This document shows positions 9,098 to 17,551 of a DNA stretch of 25,782 nucleotides, in pieces. Position numbers and translations under genes: made by a program. Every line of letters starts with the position of its first letter. The stretch's first letter is position 1. Origin of the DNA: a virus (taxonomy: Duplodnaviria; Caudoviricetes). The notes beneath the pieces were generated by a model. The model was not told the DNA's origin and did no database searches. It saw only the letters and a list, made by a program, of their open reading frames with translations. Where the stretch lies: positions 1 to 25,782 of the IMG/VR virus record IMGVR_UViG_3300028414_000055, one strand, 5' to 3'.

Positions 9098-10525
9098 ATG
9101 GATAAATTTACTAGAAATAAATGGCAAAAGGGCTACAGATCACACCAATACGGTGACCCAACATATATTAGCTTCTTTTTAATGTTTGATTGGGGAGAAT
9201 CTCCTCTTTTTAACGGAGTAGCCGAAGATTTTTTAAGAAATGTTTTATTCGAACCGGAAAGAGCTGATAAACTTGTAAGGTTTACAAAACTTCTACAAAA
9301 ATTGAATAGAGAAATGCCTTGGTATTTTTATGAAATAGAGGGTTTTGAAAATGTTTATAAATTTGAAAATTTAAAAGAAGCATATAGAGGTACTGACGAC
9401 GGTATAAAAATAAAAACCATAGAAACTTTAGATTTAATGGTTGCTGGTTTAATGGATATGTATAGAGATGTTGCATTTGATATGGATAGGTGGTGCGAAG
9501 TTTTACCACATAATATGACTTATTTTAGTCTTACCATAATTGTTTCAGAATGTAGAACTATTGCTAATAGAAAGTTAAATACTAATAAAAATCAAACTAA
9601 TGATTTTCAAAATGAAGAAAGAGAGTATACTGTAATAAATCAAGATATTGCATATAGTGCAAAATCACATTTTGCTGTTAAATTAGGAAAATGTTCTTTT
9701 CATACAGATTCAGGAGTTGGTATATTTGGAGGATTATCGACTTCAGAGCCTAAAATTGCAGAAAATCAAATTCAAATTAAGTATCAAACAGTAAAGTATT
9801 ACAGTAAACAATACTTGAATGAATTTGAGGGTACTTTAGCTGAAAATAAACTATCTGAAGTTGGAAGTAATACTCCTAATACTGCAGGAAATGATGAAAA
9901 TACTACAACGCCTTCAAGTGAGGGTGATAAAAGAAGTGGCAAAGAAGAATCTAATACTAAATCTAATAATGATACGACCAATGTTACTTTTACCGGTAAA
10001 ACTGTAGAAAAGGTTGAAGGTTTTGAACAGCAGCCGCTTGAAGAAGTTTTAAGTACCGAAAGAATAGACGGTTTTGAACAGCAGCCACTTGAAGAAGTTT
10101 TAAGTACCGAAAGAATAGACGGTTTTGGAGAAAATCAAAACACAGAAAACCCCATTGAATTTGGTAGTCCAGGAAGATTAGGAGAAAACTTACTTGCTGA
10201 TGCATTAGCAGAACTTGAAGGTGCTGGACAGCGTTTAAAACAAGATACTTTAGCAAAACTTCTTTTAGGAAACGTATATGGTTTAAATGCTGCTTCTAAT
10301 ATACAAGATGCTCTTGCTGCTGGAAGTTTAAACGGACTTAGAAATTTAGCAGTAAAAACTGCACAGGCATTAACAGACGATTCATCTCAAAATTCTAATA
10401 TCGGTGCAAGTGTTGGAGATAATGTATTTCCGGAATCAATTCCTGAAGTTCCACTTAAACCTACTAACAATATTCAATCACCTCCACCTGAAAAGGATTC
10501 TAATTTAGGAAACATACATGGATAA
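9098..10525 (+). CDS. Virion/baseplate protein, possible second tube-fold (gp54/gp19-like) domain plus low-complexity C-terminal half
   Basis: Position in the baseplate module. The N-terminal ~240 aa look globular (PWYFYEIEG...IKIKTIETLDL...MYRDVAFD); the C-terminus is N/S/T/E-rich with a tandem repeat. Confidence 0.4.
   Translation: MDKFTRNKWQKGYRSHQYGDPTYISFFLMFDWGESPLFNGVAEDFLRNVLFEPERADKLVRFTKLLQKLNREMPWYFYEIEGFENVYKFENLKEAYRGTDDGIKIKTIETLDLMVAGLMDMYRDVAFDMDRWCEVLPHNMTYFSLTIIVSECRTIANRKLNTNKNQTNDFQNEEREYTVINQDIAYSAKSHFAVKLGKCSFHTDSGVGIFGGLSTSEPKIAENQIQIKYQTVKYYSKQYLNEFEGTLAENKLSEVGSNTPNTAGNDENTTTPSSEGDKRSGKEESNTKSNNDTTNVTFTGKTVEKVEGFEQQPLEEVLSTERIDGFEQQPLEEVLSTERIDGFGENQNTENPIEFGSPGRLGENLLADALAELEGAGQRLKQDTLAKLLLGNVYGLNAASNIQDALAAGSLNGLRNLAVKTAQALTDDSSQNSNIGASVGDNVFPESIPEVPLKPTNNIQSPPPEKDSNLGNIHG
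10019..10127 (+). repeat. 51-bp in-frame tandem repeat, 2 copies plus a 7-bp partial (GFEQQPLEEVLSTERID x2)
   Basis: 10019-10069 and 10070-10120 are identical except for one synonymous change (ccg/cca); ggttttg follows. Confidence 0.97.
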
Positions 10526-11367: not shown

Positions 11368-11847
11368 ATGTTAAATAAAAACGGATTAAAATCTAAAATA
11401 GAAAAAAGAATTAAAGAGTTAGAAGAGCCACTTGCTAAAAAGCTTGCAGGTGGAGATAGTAAAGTAAGAGTATCTAACTTTGTAACAGATGCATTCGATA
11501 CTGAAGATTTAGTTATGCCACCTGCTGGTTTATACAAAGCTCAGAAAAATATTGATAAATGGTATCAAGATAATTTAGAGCCTCCAGGAATAGATCAGAA
11601 CAGTTTTAAAAAGAAGCAGTGGAAAAACTTTGCAGATGAAGTATCGGGACAAATATCAAAAGAGTTAATTGATGTCTTATCAAAAGAACTTTCTAAAATT
11701 ATAGCCGAAGAGATAGATGCTTATGTAAAAGATGCAGATATAAAATTGACAATACCTCCAGGGTTTTTACAATTGCAGAGTCCAGCAGGTCCAGCTACAA
11801 ATGCAGCACCAATTACACTTAACCCATTGAACTTTTCGTTTAAATAA
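11368..11847 (+). CDS. Hypothetical virion protein (159 aa), probably spike-associated
   Basis: Starts 1 nt after the spike stop; helical region followed by EIDAYVKDADIKLTIPPG...SPAGPAT. Confidence 0.6.
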   Translation: MLNKNGLKSKIEKRIKELEEPLAKKLAGGDSKVRVSNFVTDAFDTEDLVMPPAGLYKAQKNIDKWYQDNLEPPGIDQNSFKKKQWKNFADEVSGQISKELIDVLSKELSKIIAEEIDAYVKDADIKLTIPPGFLQLQSPAGPATNAAPITLNPLNFSFK

Positions 11848-11853
11848 TTAAAA

Positions 11854-11863
11854 GAATATATAA
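11854..11863 (+). promoter_or_regulatory. Putative late promoter (GAATATATAA) upstream of the S1-like gene
   Basis: RATAWATA core in the 38-nt intergenic gap, followed by the A-rich leader ttaaaccttaaaaatataacaaATG. Confidence 0.4.
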
Positions 11864-11885
11864 TTAAACCTTAAAAATATAACAA

Positions 11886-13091
11886 ATGATTAACAAATCT
11901 GACGCCGATTGGTTTGATGCCGACGGTAACTTTGATTGGGATGGCTATGAAGCCACTTGCCCATCAGCAATTAGGAAGGGAAATCCTCACATTAAAACAA
12001 ACGATCCAAAACACAAAGTATTTTGTAGAGAAAGCTACGCACAGGAGCTTTATGATAAGTACAACAAACATGATGAAGACTCAAATACTTTGTCAAAAGT
12101 TGAACACGGCGTTCAATACACCGGTACTGTTTATTCTACTAAAGGCAGTACATCTACTGTCGATATTGGATATAGACAACTTGTCTTTATTAATCTACAA
12201 AAAGAAGACCCTGCATTTAGAGAATTAGGAAAAACAATAGGCTCTGAAGTAGACGTTACAATTACTTCTGACCCTTTTGATGATTCAGTATCTCTATACG
12301 GTTCATTAACTGAAGGAGCTAGAAAAAAGACATTCACTGAAATGCAAGCTGCTATCGAAACACAAGATACAGCATGGAGTGGTAATGTTACTAAAATGAT
12401 GCAAGAAGCAGGATATATTGTTCGTGTAAATGGAATTGATTGCTTTATGCCGGGTAGTTTAGCTGGTATTAATAAACTACATGATTTCTCTAGTATTATA
12501 GACACTGACATGTATGTTGTTCCAGTAAGTTTTTCTAAAGAAAAAGGAACTATTGTAGTTTCACATAGAGCTTATTTAAAGACTATGATTCCAGGTACTA
12601 TTGATAAACTTAAAGAAAATTTAACTCAAGAAATTACTGGTACCGTTACAGGTTCAGCCAAGTATGGAGTATTCTGTGAATTTAATGAATGCTTAACTGG
12701 TATGATTCATGTAAATGATTTAGATTCTGATTTGTTAGTAAGACATAAGAATAGAGAAATAGTTCCAGGAGAAGAGATTACATTTAGAATCAAAGATATT
12801 ATTTCAAATGATAAAATAACTCTTACTCAAAAAGATGAGGTTGCTGCAAATCCTTGGTTAAAAATCAATGAGAAGTTTAAACCTAATTCTGATGTTTTAG
12901 CAACTGTAAAATCATGTAAAGATTATGGATTGTTTATTGAAATAGCGGAAGGTATTGTTGGCTTATTACATGTAAGTGAATTTGAAAATACAGAAGCTTT
13001 AAAATCGTATAAACCTAAGCATAAAATAAACGTTACAATAACTAGAATAGAGGAAGATACAAAGAAAGTTTTCTTAAAACTTGCTGAGTAA
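11886..13091 (+). CDS. rpsA: Phage-encoded ribosomal protein S1 homologue (four S1/OB domains)
   Basis: NFDWDGYE N-terminus; D1 GTV...VDIGY; D2 GYIVRVNGIDCFMPGS...IVVSHRAYL; D3 GTVTGSAKYGVFCE...GMIHVNDL; linker NPW; D4 DYGLFIEIAEGIVGLLHVSEF. Collinear with bS1 domains 1-4. Confidence 0.9.
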   Translation: MINKSDADWFDADGNFDWDGYEATCPSAIRKGNPHIKTNDPKHKVFCRESYAQELYDKYNKHDEDSNTLSKVEHGVQYTGTVYSTKGSTSTVDIGYRQLVFINLQKEDPAFRELGKTIGSEVDVTITSDPFDDSVSLYGSLTEGARKKTFTEMQAAIETQDTAWSGNVTKMMQEAGYIVRVNGIDCFMPGSLAGINKLHDFSSIIDTDMYVVPVSFSKEKGTIVVSHRAYLKTMIPGTIDKLKENLTQEITGTVTGSAKYGVFCEFNECLTGMIHVNDLDSDLLVRHKNREIVPGEEITFRIKDIISNDKITLTQKDEVAANPWLKINEKFKPNSDVLATVKSCKDYGLFIEIAEGIVGLLHVSEFENTEALKSYKPKHKINVTITRIEEDTKKVFLKLAE

Positions 13092-13121: not shown

Positions 13122-13130
13122 GATATATAA
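13122..13130 (+). promoter_or_regulatory. Putative late promoter (GATATATAA) upstream of the amidoligase gene
   Basis: Same 9-mer as 4769-4777; intergenic. Confidence 0.5.
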
Positions 13131-13148: not shown

Positions 13149-14462
13149 ATGCTCACGTATCAAATTATTAATGACGATAGAAAAGAAGACATTCTAGAAA
13201 TGGGGCTAGTTGGAGTAGAATTCGAATTTTACTCCAACAAGTCTTTAGAAGATACTAGAAAAGAAATAGCATCTCTTTTAGGTAAAAAGGTTAGGTTAGA
13301 AGATAAAGCGCATAGTGACTTCCAACCAACTAAAAAAGAGTTTAAATTAGAACCTGACATGTCAGGTGGTAAAGGCTTGGTCGAATTAGTTACTGGAGCC
13401 ATACCTTATAACGATGCTAGAAAGATGATTATCGACATGTTAGCATGGATCGATAAGAATGGATATACTACTGAAAAGTCATCAATACACTTAAATGTAA
13501 GTTTTGATTCTGACAAAGTAGAGTACCCTGAATTTATTCAAAGAATGGATGCTTTAAAGTTTATATTAGACTTTAACGAGGCTGAAGTTTACAAAATGTT
13601 TCCAAATAGAGAAAATAGTGTATACGCAAAATCAATTAAGTGGGTAGTACCTAAATTAGAATCTACTTATTTTAATGGACAGCATATTAACCCAATGTCA
13701 TTTGACTTTCCTAATGAAAAGTATTATGGAGTAAACTTTGAAAAATTACAAAAAGGATATTTAGAGTTTAGATATATTGGCGGTAAAGATTATCAAAAGA
13801 AGACTTCAAATATTCTTTATTTATTAGAAAGATTTTTATTTCAATTATGGAATACTGCAAAAAGTAAATCATACACTCAATTAAATCTTTTAGAATTAAA
13901 GAGAATATTGAATAAAAACAATCCATATATTTCAGTACTTAAAGACCATACAAGGTTTAAAGAGTTTTTTCCAGAAATAGAGTTAACCGTTGATTTAAAG
14001 AAATCTGATAAAATCATATCTCTTTATTGGGACAAGATTAAGTTTAGTGTAGTTAAGTTAATCAGCCATGGCTCTTTGTCGAAAGGTTATATTAACTATG
14101 ATAGCGACATTGGAAGAGTTCAGGTTAAAGAAGGTGAACTATCGAATTGTTTCGATTTGAATAATTACGACTTTATAGACTGCAAGATATCTGGAACTTT
14201 TTCTTTTTGTGATATATTTAGATCTGAAATAAAAGATGCTAATATGTTAAGGTGTAACCTTTATCAAAACACTATGGTTTCAGGTTCTAAAGTAGAATCT
14301 TGTTATGTTAGTAGAGAATGTGAACTTACAAACTGTTATGTTTTCCAATGGGATTCAATATTTAAAGGAAGAATGATTGGTGGTATATTTAGACATGGCA
14401 AAATAAGCAAGTCTGCAGAGTTTGATAAAACTGAAATAATAAATAGTAAAAAAATAGATTAA
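13149..14462 (+). CDS. Putative amidoligase (COOH-NH2 ligase, Amidoligase_2-like) with a C-terminal beta-helix
   Basis: Ordered motifs GVEFEF, EPDMS, ELVTG, SSIHLNVS, KYYGVNF and YLEFRYIGG; the last ~110 aa are short Cys/Ile-periodic repeats. Confidence 0.8.
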   Translation: MLTYQIINDDRKEDILEMGLVGVEFEFYSNKSLEDTRKEIASLLGKKVRLEDKAHSDFQPTKKEFKLEPDMSGGKGLVELVTGAIPYNDARKMIIDMLAWIDKNGYTTEKSSIHLNVSFDSDKVEYPEFIQRMDALKFILDFNEAEVYKMFPNRENSVYAKSIKWVVPKLESTYFNGQHINPMSFDFPNEKYYGVNFEKLQKGYLEFRYIGGKDYQKKTSNILYLLERFLFQLWNTAKSKSYTQLNLLELKRILNKNNPYISVLKDHTRFKEFFPEIELTVDLKKSDKIISLYWDKIKFSVVKLISHGSLSKGYINYDSDIGRVQVKEGELSNCFDLNNYDFIDCKISGTFSFCDIFRSEIKDANMLRCNLYQNTMVSGSKVESCYVSRECELTNCYVFQWDSIFKGRMIGGIFRHGKISKSAEFDKTEIINSKKID

Positions 14463-14464
14463 AA

Positions 14465-15307
14465 ATGGCAAAAATAAGAACAGGAGAACCCTTAGATTTT
14501 CAAAATGAAAGAGACTATGGTGCAGAATGTCTAGCTGCTTTTTTAGCAGAAATTGGTTCAGAAATTACAGGTGCATGTATGGTACCTTTAAATTTACCAG
14601 AGCCTGAAGTTAAAAATATAACTAAAAGGGCTATTAAGTGGTTTAGAAAAAATTACGAATATAGTTTAAGACAAAACTATTATCATGTTCCTTCTGAAGT
14701 TTTTTCATCTGATTATTTTAAAGATAACAGATCAGTAAATTTTGGACCACAGGAACTTGATGGTTCTGGTGAAGTTTTTTCTATTTATGGAGTTTACGAT
14801 TTAGCATCTGGTTGGAATTCAGGAGCGTCTGGTTTTGACTTAAGATTTACTGAAGGGAATGACTTCGCTATTGATAAAATGTTATTTAGAAATGCATTTG
14901 AAGGTTCAGGTGCTTCAGAGTCTGCTGAAGAGTTACAATACTATGTAATTAACCAAAGTTACTTTGATATGGCTAGACAAATATTAGAGAATCCTTTAAG
15001 TTTCCATTATTCACAATTAACTGGTGAATTGAAATTTATGGGAGATACTCCTAAAGGTGATGTTATTTTAGAGCTTTACGAAAGTATTCCTGATTGTGCA
15101 TTGTATAATGATGAAATCTTTTTTAGATATGTTGCAGCTAAAGTAAAAGTTGCAATTGGTTCTAAATTATCAGTGTTTAAGTTTTCTCTACCAGGTGGAG
15201 TTGAAATAGACTATGATGGTATTTTATCAATGGGACAAGAAGAACTGGAAGGTGTTAAAGAAGAAATAAAAGGAGATGAAGGAGTAGATTGGATGTTTCA
15301 CTCCTAA
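14465..15307 (+). CDS. Neck / head-tail adaptor protein (T4 gp13-like)
   Basis: N-terminal LNLPEPEVKNITKRAIKWF...Y and C-terminal FSLPGGVEIDYDGILSMGQEELEGVKEEI match the gp13 pattern LPGGV...G..E...L.EE. Confidence 0.75.
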   Translation: MAKIRTGEPLDFQNERDYGAECLAAFLAEIGSEITGACMVPLNLPEPEVKNITKRAIKWFRKNYEYSLRQNYYHVPSEVFSSDYFKDNRSVNFGPQELDGSGEVFSIYGVYDLASGWNSGASGFDLRFTEGNDFAIDKMLFRNAFEGSGASESAEELQYYVINQSYFDMARQILENPLSFHYSQLTGELKFMGDTPKGDVILELYESIPDCALYNDEIFFRYVAAKVKVAIGSKLSVFKFSLPGGVEIDYDGILSMGQEELEGVKEEIKGDEGVDWMFHS

Positions 15308-15322
15308 AAAATAAGATAAATA
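15304..15322 (+). promoter_or_regulatory. 19-nt element CTAAAAAATAAGATAAATA, 4 nt upstream of the gp25 ATG (copy 2)
   Basis: Exact match to 10660-10678. Confidence 0.6.
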
Positions 15323-15326
15323 ATCT

Positions 15327-15683
15327 ATGGAATTATATGTTAAAACGATAGAAGACCCAAATCACAATGTAAATACGGTTCATATTGAGAATGAGATATC
15401 ACAACTTATTACTCAAATTGAGACTATGCTTTTTACAGATAAGGGTACCGTTTTAGGAGAACCTGGATTTGGTGCAAGTTTAGAAACTTTAATATATGAA
15501 CTGAATGCAAATGAAGAGCAAGTTAAAGGACTTGTTAAGGAGCAAATAGACATGTATATCCCTTTAGCACAAAAGTATGATACTAGAGTAGATATTACTT
15601 TTCAAAGAGGAGAAATAAGAGATATTGCAAACTTAAATGTAATAATTGACTCTCAATATTTAGTTGGGGTCAGGATAGAATAA
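15327..15683 (+). CDS. Baseplate wedge / sheath initiator (gp25/gpW-like)
   Basis: IETMLFTDKGTVLGEPGFGASLETLIYE...IDMYIP is the GPW_gp25 signature; 118 aa. Confidence 0.88.
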   Translation: MELYVKTIEDPNHNVNTVHIENEISQLITQIETMLFTDKGTVLGEPGFGASLETLIYELNANEEQVKGLVKEQIDMYIPLAQKYDTRVDITFQRGEIRDIANLNVIIDSQYLVGVRIE

Positions 15684-15694
15684 TAAATAAAAAA

Positions 15695-17551
15695 ATGGCT
15701 GAATTAAAATTTTTAGAAAAAGCAAGAGTTAATGCTAAGCAAATATATGGCGATGCTTCTAATTATATTGGAAGAGTCTATGGAAGAGCTGGTGACTTTT
15801 TTACAACAGCTTCACCATTTGCTCAAATATTAGAAGTAATGTCTGAGATGAATGAAATGCTTATGTTCTATATAGAAGACTCTACAGTAGAGCAAAACAT
15901 TTACACTGCACAGCAGCCTGAATCTATATATGGACTTGCTAGACTTGCCGGTCATGACCCAACAAGAGGGTTTGCAGCAACTGGAGAAATTAGGTTTAGA
16001 TGGAAACCAGGTGCTAAAGATGATATTGCTGGAAACAATTTAATTATACCTGTAAATACTAAAATTACATTTGAAAATAATGGTCTTACTTATTTCTTAA
16101 GAACGCAAAAAGATGAGTTTCTTTTACCTAAATCTTCAAATGGCTGGGTTCAAGCAAGTATAATGCAGGGCGAATTAGAATCTCAAACAGTTACTGGAAC
16201 TGGAGAAAAGATGCAAAGTTTTAATATTAAAGTACCCGGAACAACAGACCACAACTATGTTAAAGTATCTGTAAATGGCGAATTATGGACTAAATTTGAT
16301 AGTCTATATGAAATGAGACCTACAGATAAAGGAGTTTTGATTAAAAGCGGAATTAGTGGTGGAATTGATATTTACTTTGGAACTGGTAATTTTGGTTCTA
16401 TACCTCAAAATGGAGCAGCAATAGAAATACAATATTTAAAATGTGATGGAGCTGCAGGAAACTTAAATCAATCAGGTGATTTAAGTTTTAACTGGATTGA
16501 AGAGGGTTCTGATTCAACAGGAGAAGATTATGACTTAAATGAACTACTAGATTCTGAAGTATTGATTACTCCTTTTATGGGAGCAGATCCAGAGTCTACT
16601 GAATTTACAAAAATGCTAACACCAATGGCTAGCAAAAGTTATGTTTTGTCAAATCCTGACAACTATGAATATTTCTTATCTAAATACGGTCAATTTAGTT
16701 ATTTAGATGCATATAATACAACAGAAGACGGCTATTTAGATGATGACAACGTTATTTATATTTTTGCTATTCCAGATTTAGAAAAAAGATTATTGTCTGG
16801 TACTGATTATTTTTCAGTTCCGCAAGAAGAATTCTTTTTCAGCAAAGAAGAAACTGATAGATTTATTGGTGTTATAGAGGATAGTGGTCAACAAATGGTT
16901 ACAAGTGAAGCTGTATTCGTAGAGCCTAAAGCTATTAAATATAGAATGGATATATCTATAAGATGGTTTGAAGGATTTAAGCAAGAAGATATTTTTAATG
17001 ACATCAGAGCTGCGGTTAGTAATTACCTTATAAAAATTACAAGAAGGGATAAACTTCCTAAAAGTGATATCGTTGCCTTAATCGAGGATGTTGAAGGTGT
17101 TGATGCCGTAAATGTTCAATTTGTTTCGAGTGTTGAAGAAGAGGCTAGAAGAAATGGATACTACACTTATAAAAAGATTACAGTTACCCCCACAACGCCT
17201 GAACTCCTCGGCAACGACGGAGACCAAAAAAGATTAGTGTTCTTTAAAAGAACAGAAGAAATTAAAAAAATAACGCTTGACCAGCCAGACATGTTAATTC
17301 CTGTTTCAGGAGGAGATAAGGCTATAGAAGATTGGTACAATAAAATAGGTTTAGATAAGTATGGTGACATTATTTTAGATAAAGATGAAGTTGCTGTATT
17401 TAGAGGAAATTGGGAAGATAGAGATGGGAATCTTGTAAAAGATACTCCAGCTATTGGTGAAATGAGTTCACTTTCAATTTATTTTGATAATCCACCAGTT
17501 CCTAGAACTATTTATAGTAGAATTCAAGCAGGAAATAGAAGAGCATTGTAA
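15695..17551 (+). CDS. Baseplate wedge protein (gp6 / baseplate J-like)
   Basis: Follows gp25. EQNIYTAQQPESIYGLARLAGHDP, IYFGTGNFGSIP, YLKCDGAAGN and GADPES...DNYE motifs of gp6. Confidence 0.85.
   Translation: MAELKFLEKARVNAKQIYGDASNYIGRVYGRAGDFFTTASPFAQILEVMSEMNEMLMFYIEDSTVEQNIYTAQQPESIYGLARLAGHDPTRGFAATGEIRFRWKPGAKDDIAGNNLIIPVNTKITFENNGLTYFLRTQKDEFLLPKSSNGWVQASIMQGELESQTVTGTGEKMQSFNIKVPGTTDHNYVKVSVNGELWTKFDSLYEMRPTDKGVLIKSGISGGIDIYFGTGNFGSIPQNGAAIEIQYLKCDGAAGNLNQSGDLSFNWIEEGSDSTGEDYDLNELLDSEVLITPFMGADPESTEFTKMLTPMASKSYVLSNPDNYEYFLSKYGQFSYLDAYNTTEDGYLDDDNVIYIFAIPDLEKRLLSGTDYFSVPQEEFFFSKEETDRFIGVIEDSGQQMVTSEAVFVEPKAIKYRMDISIRWFEGFKQEDIFNDIRAAVSNYLIKITRRDKLPKSDIVALIEDVEGVDAVNVQFVSSVEEEARRNGYYTYKKITVTPTTPELLGNDGDQKRLVFFKRTEEIKKITLDQPDMLIPVSGGDKAIEDWYNKIGLDKYGDIILDKDEVAVFRGNWEDRDGNLVKDTPAIGEMSSLSIYFDNPPVPRTIYSRIQAGNRRAL

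Follow-up and report, generated by a model that had tools for sequence, protein, structure and literature searches.

A phage-encoded, four-domain homologue of ribosomal protein bS1 with a putative Bacteroidia-type N-terminal anchor

Introduction

The Caudoviricetes record IMGVR_UViG_3300028414_000055, of which a stretch of 25,782 nucleotides was analysed (the window), encodes at 11886..13091 on the forward strand a 401-amino acid (aa) homologue of ribosomal protein bS1 with four S1 domains. It is a genuine gene of a large marine phage and not a chimera, and it is under purifying selection. The N-terminus of the protein carries what residue conservation supports as a Bacteroidia-type anchor motif, and we favour, with moderate confidence, the view that the protein is a bS1 paralogue, probably produced in the late phase of infection, that would dock on the 30S subunit of a likely Bacteroidia host and there help to load phage mRNAs lacking a Shine-Dalgarno (SD) sequence.

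Phage S1 genes are already in print (2013, 2020), and the gene described here is not new in kind. Published work is cited by identifier, for those portions of each source that were accessible. S1 has been recorded in viromes (2013; PMC3877843) and in a cyanophage (2026; PMC13157829). Al-Shayeb et al. (2020) described huge-phage S1 proteins of up to six domains, tied them to a lack of SD sequences and proposed a role in initiation (PMC7162821); a search of the accessible supplements of that paper for S1 terms found nothing. Whether phage S1 is a real ribosomal protein has been left open, since Mizuno et al. (2019) set it aside as ambiguous and excluded it (PMC6375957) and a 'true' rpS1 was judged hard to confirm in PMC7162821. 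The accessible text and the two searched supplements of Chen et al. (2022; PMC9723584) contain no mention of bS1, nor do the accessible portions of PMC7824862 and PMC6784885, and the literature searched, which largely excluded subscription papers, yielded no study in which the function of a phage bS1 was tested.

Results

A bS1 homologue with four S1 domains

A preliminary description made from the sequence alone had proposed at this position a protein of 401 aa containing four S1 domains. Its coordinates, length and motifs (FDWDGYE, HVNDL and HVSEF, all present in the translation) are correct, and the four domains are seen in an alignment and in an AlphaFold model. Pfam S1 matches the protein with E = 3e-19, two stretches passing independently. 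Eleven NCBIfam rpsA models match at 64–141 bits, all under their cut-offs, and non-ribosomal S1 families reach at most 61 bits; the HMM scan that had been suggested as a check therefore ranks rpsA/bS1 above the non-ribosomal families. The six-domain equivalog TIGR00717 gives 134.8 bits against a cut-off of 577, which none of 30 Bacteroidia genomes reaches either (506–573 bits). Residues 79–383 align to residues 25–324 of the 557-aa bS1 chain 6h4n_y, which we take from its known sequence and length to be E. coli bS1, and the four beta-barrel domains that the E. coli alignment reveals are also found in the AlphaFold model (30 sequences; mean pLDDT 80.7, pTM 0.49), together with two N-terminal helices. 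Foldseek searches with this model return bS1 chains in 30S complexes as the best matches (9gut_B, E = 9e-27). By NCBIfam, PDB sequence and fold alike, the best match class is ribosomal bS1, and not PNPase, RNase R, CvfD or NusA. Residues 1–70 had no match of at least 0.9 in the ESM Atlas, and no PHROG structural family matched the protein.

The S1 domains of bS1 fall into types 1, 2, 3, 4–5 and 6 (PMC2760812). Domain 1 of the phage protein (12099..12305, +) is of the D1 type, with an arginine, R97, where E. coli has K43 (PMC10123108); it is the main anchor domain and the least conserved across the family. Domain 2 (12366..12569, +), the most conserved, is of the D2 type, has the equivalents of E. 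coli F120, F130 and R163, and lacks basic residues at E. coli positions 139 and 142. Domain 3 (12624..12830, +) stands at the D3 place and is D4/5-like by turn length and score, and domain 4 (12882..13082, +) is of the D4/5 type.

A conserved phage neighbourhood

Upstream of the S1 gene, on the same strand, lie a gp5-type spike/hub OB gene (PF04717; 10683-11366, +) and a 159-aa open reading frame (ORF) of no family (11368-11847, +). Downstream are an Amidoligase_2 gene (13149..14462, +; Pfam E = 4.7e-6), which has its own GATATATA box at 13122-13129, and a block at 14465..17551 (+) comprising a head-tail adaptor or neck gene (phrog_211), a gp25-like ORF and a gp6-like wedge gene. The location given in the preliminary description, between a spike-associated gene and neck/gp25 genes, is thus right as to the spike and the neck, but it skipped the amidoligase gene, and the gp25 label of the 118-aa ORF is weakly supported (phrog_43, E = 0.021). 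The C-terminal part of the Amidoligase_2 gene resembles short repeats, and an amidoligase gene also lies near S1 in LR756500.1. To link the two genes by function, with the amidoligase modifying a ribosomal protein by peptide addition, for instance, would be speculation. Elsewhere in the window, the ORF at 9098-10525 contains a direct repeat of ~60 nt (9956-10076), which yields a doubled EGFEQQPLEEVLSTERID-like peptide.

Homologues numbered 1262 out of 4924 candidates, and among the 120 matches listed they are 340–447 aa long and share 51–96% identity. In IMG/VR a relative is encoded in 111 of 123 matched stretches, and 80 loci were retained; these are a sample, drawn by a three-row alignment scan covering 1/64 of the collection, they do not name the closest cell, and many are near-copies, with 43 distinct translations among the 78 that are uncut. 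The amidoligase gene is directly downstream of S1 in all 80 loci, the neck gene follows in 78 (the other two end early) and the spike gene precedes S1 in 76 (the other four are too short). Within the window GC content is flat. Three pairwise comparisons gave dN/dS of 0.113, 0.072 and 0.084 for the S1 gene, and seven neighbouring genes gave 0.04–0.29. A relative, G001 (205 kb, 75% complete), encodes T4-like portal, protease, capsid, sheath and tube proteins and a gp55-type late sigma factor, and the locus in contig G153 matches the window at 99.97% identity across 13,203 bases.

Assembly chimerism or host contamination, the outcome that would have undone the preliminary description, is exceedingly improbable. 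S1 matches in phage collections are often host DNA (one rpsA was flanked by cmk and himD), and caution on this point is urged in PMC3877843; here, however, the idea is refuted by the fixed neighbours and flat GC, by an identity to cellular bS1 of only ~25–30%, and by the phage-only group in both of the trees described below.

Two variants were seen among the relatives. In one locus (L046) the S1 frame stops after 103 codons, through assembly error or as a broken allele. Members of 420–447 aa have an extension of 30–45 aa at the N-terminus of the alignment, opening with a basic K-R-x-R-I, which the subgroup containing the window protein (395–405 aa) lacks.

A putative Bacteroidia-type anchor at the N-terminus

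In the Flavobacterium johnsoniae 30S subunit, bS1 residues 1–42 sit on uS2 and uS8 as a helix-loop-helix, in which the helix FLANFNWHNF contacts uS8, and the N-terminal density of bS1 is unstable without bS21 (PMC13000457). The phage protein begins with a G-x-F-D-W-x-x-Y helix (residues 14–24; 11925..11957, +), a predicted counterpart of the uS8-contacting helix, in which F16, W18 and F/Y21 correspond to the aromatic residues of FLANFNWHNF and are kept in 84/84 family members. An ESYAQELY helix (residues 48–59; 12027..12062, +), with Y51, A52 and Q53 invariant in the family alignment, probably corresponds to the N-terminal helix that binds uS2. Between the two lies a phage-specific insert of ~25 aa (11958..12023, +) with C25 and N33 invariant. 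The AlphaFold model places helices at residues 18–24 and 52–59. The spacing from the phenylalanine to D1 is 83 in the window protein versus mostly 58 in Bacteroidia.

Of 28 Bacteroidia, 21 have F[DN]W ahead of D1 (a looser count gives 24 of 30); the motif has this position in none of 20 genomes from the rest of the phylum and in none of 69 Proteobacteria. Here the Bacteroidia set is the class of the Flavobacteriales record G006 and the other genomes of the phylum were grouped by sequence. When profiles of the whole N-terminus are compared, the similarity to Bacteroidia is weak (HHalign probability of 6% with E = 0.0017; HMM medians of ~1–2 bits) and is interrupted by the 25-aa insert; ESYAQELY resembles ESFAQLF at a place where the profile alignment is likewise weak. 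Among 41 full-length phage-type representatives, F[DNS]W is present in 10 and absent from 31, so the wider family manages without the motif.

Candidate ribosome-binding and RNA-binding residues

The residues Y/F260, F263, H275, K310, Y347, F350, H362 and K/R394, presumably the usual RNA face of S1 domains, are kept in 84/84 family members. The tryptophan that follows the His motif in domains 3 and 4 is missing from all 84, compared with its presence in 28/29 and 29/29 Bacteroidia bS1 respectively. The suggestion that both RNA faces have diverged is thus borne out for the loop tryptophans but not for the Y/F-G-x-F, His and Lys positions.

E. coli K43, which belongs to the uS2 pocket, and F120 and F130 (PMC10123108), with R163 (PMC10983998), correspond to R97, Y177, F187 and R/K220 of the phage protein, each kept in 84/84 members; by alignment, the equivalent of E. 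coli K117 is not kept in the phage family. T4 ModB modifies E. coli bS1 at the D2 positions R139 and R142 (PMC10931766). These positions are K/R in 120/120 cellular proteins and basic in 0/84 family members, and position 142 is non-basic in 48/48 phage-type representatives. The invariant K197, in the domain 2 loop at residues 196–199, adjoins position 139, so the charge may merely have moved. The ADP-ribosyltransferase family PF03496 was found in none of five records searched, two of them incomplete, by a profile that ModB-like enzymes may evade.

Origin of the domains

In each of the three host groups, the profile of phage domain 1 has its highest score on host D1 and that of phage domain 2 on host D2. 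Domain 3 is colinear with D3, including the linker, yet its beta2-beta3 turn has seven residues in 84/84 family members and in 33/33 pattern-matched proteins (51 examined); the turn in hosts has six residues in D3 (19/19) and seven in D4/D5, and that of LR756500.1 has six. A profile of domains 3 and 4 scores higher on D4D5 than on D3D4 in 26/26, 17/21 and 67/69 hosts of the three groups, the sets being smaller where motifs were unmatched. In an unconstrained domain tree, domains 3 and 4 of the phage proteins pair with each other (support 96), which could reflect duplication or long-branch pull. A D3 origin of domain 3 was not rejected (AU p = 0.35) in this tree of few columns, where none of four AU tests rejected anything. 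With a D4/5-like domain 3 and a D3 origin not rejected, 'C-terminally truncated' is one of two readings: the protein has four domains against six, but the earlier statement that it keeps D3–D4 and lacks D5–D6 is not established.

A phylogeny against bS1 had also been suggested. Trees of 59 and 40 rows set the phage proteins apart by a long branch (SH-aLRT 100), as a phage-only group outside Bacteroidia, the first built minus three Bacteroidia rows whose anchoring failed and the second minus 19 further rows. Constraining the phage proteins with Bacteroidia gave AU p = 0.278, by which that grouping is neither rejected nor shown. The family profile scores E. coli bS1 at 185 bits versus 145 for the 591-aa Flavobacterium chain 9zcd_A, assigned to F. 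johnsoniae through the bS21 that 9zcd shares with 7jil. Given the trees and the higher E. coli score, the label 'Bacteroidetes-type' fits the F-D-W motif (21/28 Bacteroidia, 0/89 others) but does not denote a demonstrated donor.

Upstream boxes and transcription

A RATATATA box, the candidate late promoter, occupies 11855..11862 (+), 31 nt before the ATG. It occurs in 30/30 upstream regions, 31–49 nt before the S1 start in each of the distinct upstream 60-mers, compared with 6.4% of shuffles, and in 33/33 distinct S1-amidoligase spacers. In G001, GATATATA is found 43 times on the coding strand versus five on the other, and RATATATA precedes 30 of 198 ORFs, including portal, protease, sheath and tube. 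As the box is common to S1 and virion genes, and a gp55-type late sigma factor is encoded, RATATATA is taken as a late promoter and late timing of S1 is likely. The proposal that the gene has its own promoter is sustained in this phage-type form, and not in that of a host or T4 consensus, matches to which were at chance: sigma-70 (8 sites vs 8.5 in shuffles), the Bacteroidetes-type TAnnTTTG (45 vs 39.4) and the T4-type TATAAATA (3 vs 6.2) were all rejected.

The short leader contains an AACCTT-like box (11866..11872, +), of which a variant occurs in 29/30 distinct upstream regions, the pattern having been derived from the same sequences in which it was counted. This AACCTT/CACCTT-like box is a possible autoregulatory site. 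By eye, it is absent before the other genes of the window. No SD sequence was found upstream of S1 in any of the 30 distinct upstream regions.

Five seawater metatranscriptome assemblies contain the stretch, one of them at 0.92 of its words. RNA contigs of three of four runs cover the S1 gene and those of run X5 do not; runs X4–X8 hold only small shares of the stretch. The contigs of X1, X2 and X3 start at 11898, 11910 and 11894, without loose ends, and 11789-11893 is covered by no contig of the four RNA runs. These starts fit a transcript start just ahead of S1, a weak hint given that assembled contigs, possibly from one campaign and with no DNA run as comparison, do not allow level, strand or start to be read.

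Host, bS21 and SD usage

A bS21 gene is present in eight of ten viral contigs examined (5/5 long contigs, then 3/5 more) and in three of five public huge-phage records; none was found in LR756500.1 and Lak-A2. The bS21 gene of G153 (L370 1483-1680) lies ~17 kb upstream of S1, and its product has as best PDB match 7jil, the F. johnsoniae ribosome (E = 1e-7). It keeps Tyr at position 54, the equivalent of which holds the anti-SD in F. johnsoniae (PMC7797042). In its first helix, Ile-Leu stands in place of the Arg-Tyr of the F. johnsoniae protein, and neither an SD sequence nor a RATATATA box lies within 40 nt upstream of the gene. In G001 the two genes are on one strand, with bS21 ~18 kb upstream of S1 and a long way from the head genes. 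Sequence comparisons thus make Bacteroidia the likely hosts.

SD sequences are not enriched in G001 (13 of 198 ORFs vs 16 in a control window) or in G003 (5 of 169 vs 9). Bacteroidia host mRNAs likewise lack them (PMC7797042), so SD absence gives no ground for selectivity. In F. johnsoniae, bS21 steadies bS1 on the 30S subunit (PMC13000457) and bS1 doubles initiation on an SD-less mRNA (PMC9976891).

Discussion

The phage protein retains residues known for contact with uS8, uS2 and mRNA, and a bS21 gene is present in the same phage population. The host group, late timing, ribosome binding and mRNA loading are inferred. Under the reading that we favour, S1 protein would be made late in infection from the RATATATA-type promoter; its two N-terminal helices and D1 would dock on uS8 and uS2, beside phage bS21; the docked protein would add to or displace host bS1 on the 30S subunit; and D2 with the two distal domains would load A/U-rich, SD-less phage leaders. 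Four domains could suffice for this, because in E. coli the mRNA follows OB2–OB4 without visible contact to OB5–OB6 (PMC10983998). A preference for phage over host mRNA is the least supported element. A bolder version, which we think quite unlikely, is that the phage's own bS21 and a remodelled bS1 form a matched pair that would make a ribosome preferring late mRNA and resisting inactivation aimed at host bS1; the remodelling would consist of the insert-bearing anchor, D1–D2 and two D4/5-type domains, without the Trp loops and without the basic D2 sites.

Several off-ribosome roles of bS1 are known in phage infection (PMC10931766), and the protein could act as an RNA chaperone or enzyme cofactor, as host bS1 does with T4 RegB or Q-beta replicase, and might for instance protect or sort late mRNA, its anchor motifs being relics or binding free uS2. 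This is unlikely. In its favour, RegB stimulation requires at least D4–D5 (PMC10931766) and phage domains 3 and 4 look D4/5-type, D1 is the most variable domain, F[DNS]W is absent from 31 of 41 phage-type representatives, and 'on or off the ribosome' is left undecided in PMC7162821. Retention of F16, W18, Y51 and R97 in 84/84 members at 51–95% overall identity is, however, hard to explain without 30S partners, and S1 co-occurs with bS21. The loss of basic residues at the ModB target positions (basic in 120/120 cells, 0/84 family members) and of the loop Trp in both distal domains would suit instead a resistant spare for modified or destroyed host bS1, or a site blocker that shuts down host translation. 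We find this doubtful: no PF03496 enzyme appeared in the five records, subject to the incompleteness and possible escape already mentioned, K197 may keep the charge, and the invariant core RNA-face residues are unlike those of a dead decoy.

Very improbable is a virion or baseplate component, or a protein packaged and injected, a possibility raised in the preliminary description. The gene does lie between spike and neck/wedge genes in 76–78 of 80 loci and in LR756500.1, and its box is common to virion genes; but the Lak-A2, Lak-B5 and four other huge-phage records have no baseplate-module homologue within 8 kb of S1, the S1 and amidoligase genes each have a separate promoter box, and the protein has no PHROG structural match and a fold that matches ribosomal proteins.

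If ribosome docking by the late-made paralogue is true, phage remodelling of the ribosome would reach beyond small proteins to the one chiefly responsible for recruiting mRNA. Since the family keeps a docking motif that is specific to a host class and has had a solved structure since 2026, it offers a sharp test in F. johnsoniae.

Comparison with known S1 and bS21 systems

Thirty-five phage records match the protein, including 15 Prevotella Lak records and six records of 462–735 kb, with no cultured member among them judging by their titles. A phage-type D2 signature was found by profile search in 48 of 150 representatives, all of them 476 aa or shorter; another 64 match neither pattern. The huge-phage rpS1 proteins (LR756500–LR756504, LR745206 and 15 Lak) form one tree group with the window protein, have in common the signature FMP[GN][ST][LM]A[GA]xN in D2, and are 29–40% identical to it. 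LR756500.1 has the order spike, S1, amidoligase, neck as in the window, whereas the baseplate location is absent from the six other records examined (Lak-A2, Lak-B5 and four huge-phage records). The synteny survey that had been envisaged therefore returned an order fixed in 80/80 loci but a baseplate position that is clade-specific. Lak proteins have three domains with a divergent D1, compared with four in the window protein; they keep the F-x-W helix and a similar insert, while the four largest huge-phage records are without FDW. In Lak-A2 (L085 7950-9059) and Lak-B5 (L088 7947-9056) the protein has an acidic, helix-like tail and its gene lies among non-baseplate genes. Domain typing, anchor analysis and a promoter for huge-phage rpS1 are not given in the accessible portion of PMC7162821.

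Bacteroidia bS1, as in F. johnsoniae, has the same F-[DN]-W helix, a second helix and then D1- and D2-type domains. It has six domains against four; the phage protein differs further in the 25-aa anchor insert, shares ~25–28% identity, lacks Trp after the His motifs and basic residues at 139 and 142, and is not nested within Bacteroidia in the trees. Four domains are normal for bS1 in Firmicutes and Actinobacteria (PMC6705787), whose proteins of ~390–400 aa are like the window protein; as far as compared, the resemblance is one of size only, the window protein scoring 107 against a cut-off of 368 for PRK06676 and the one Firmicute row used being without FDW. The bS21 of Bacteroidetes phages (PMC9723584, PMC6375957) follows the same proposed logic, a late swap of a loosely bound 30S protein, and differs in placement, being on the reverse strand among head genes, unlike the bS21 of G001.
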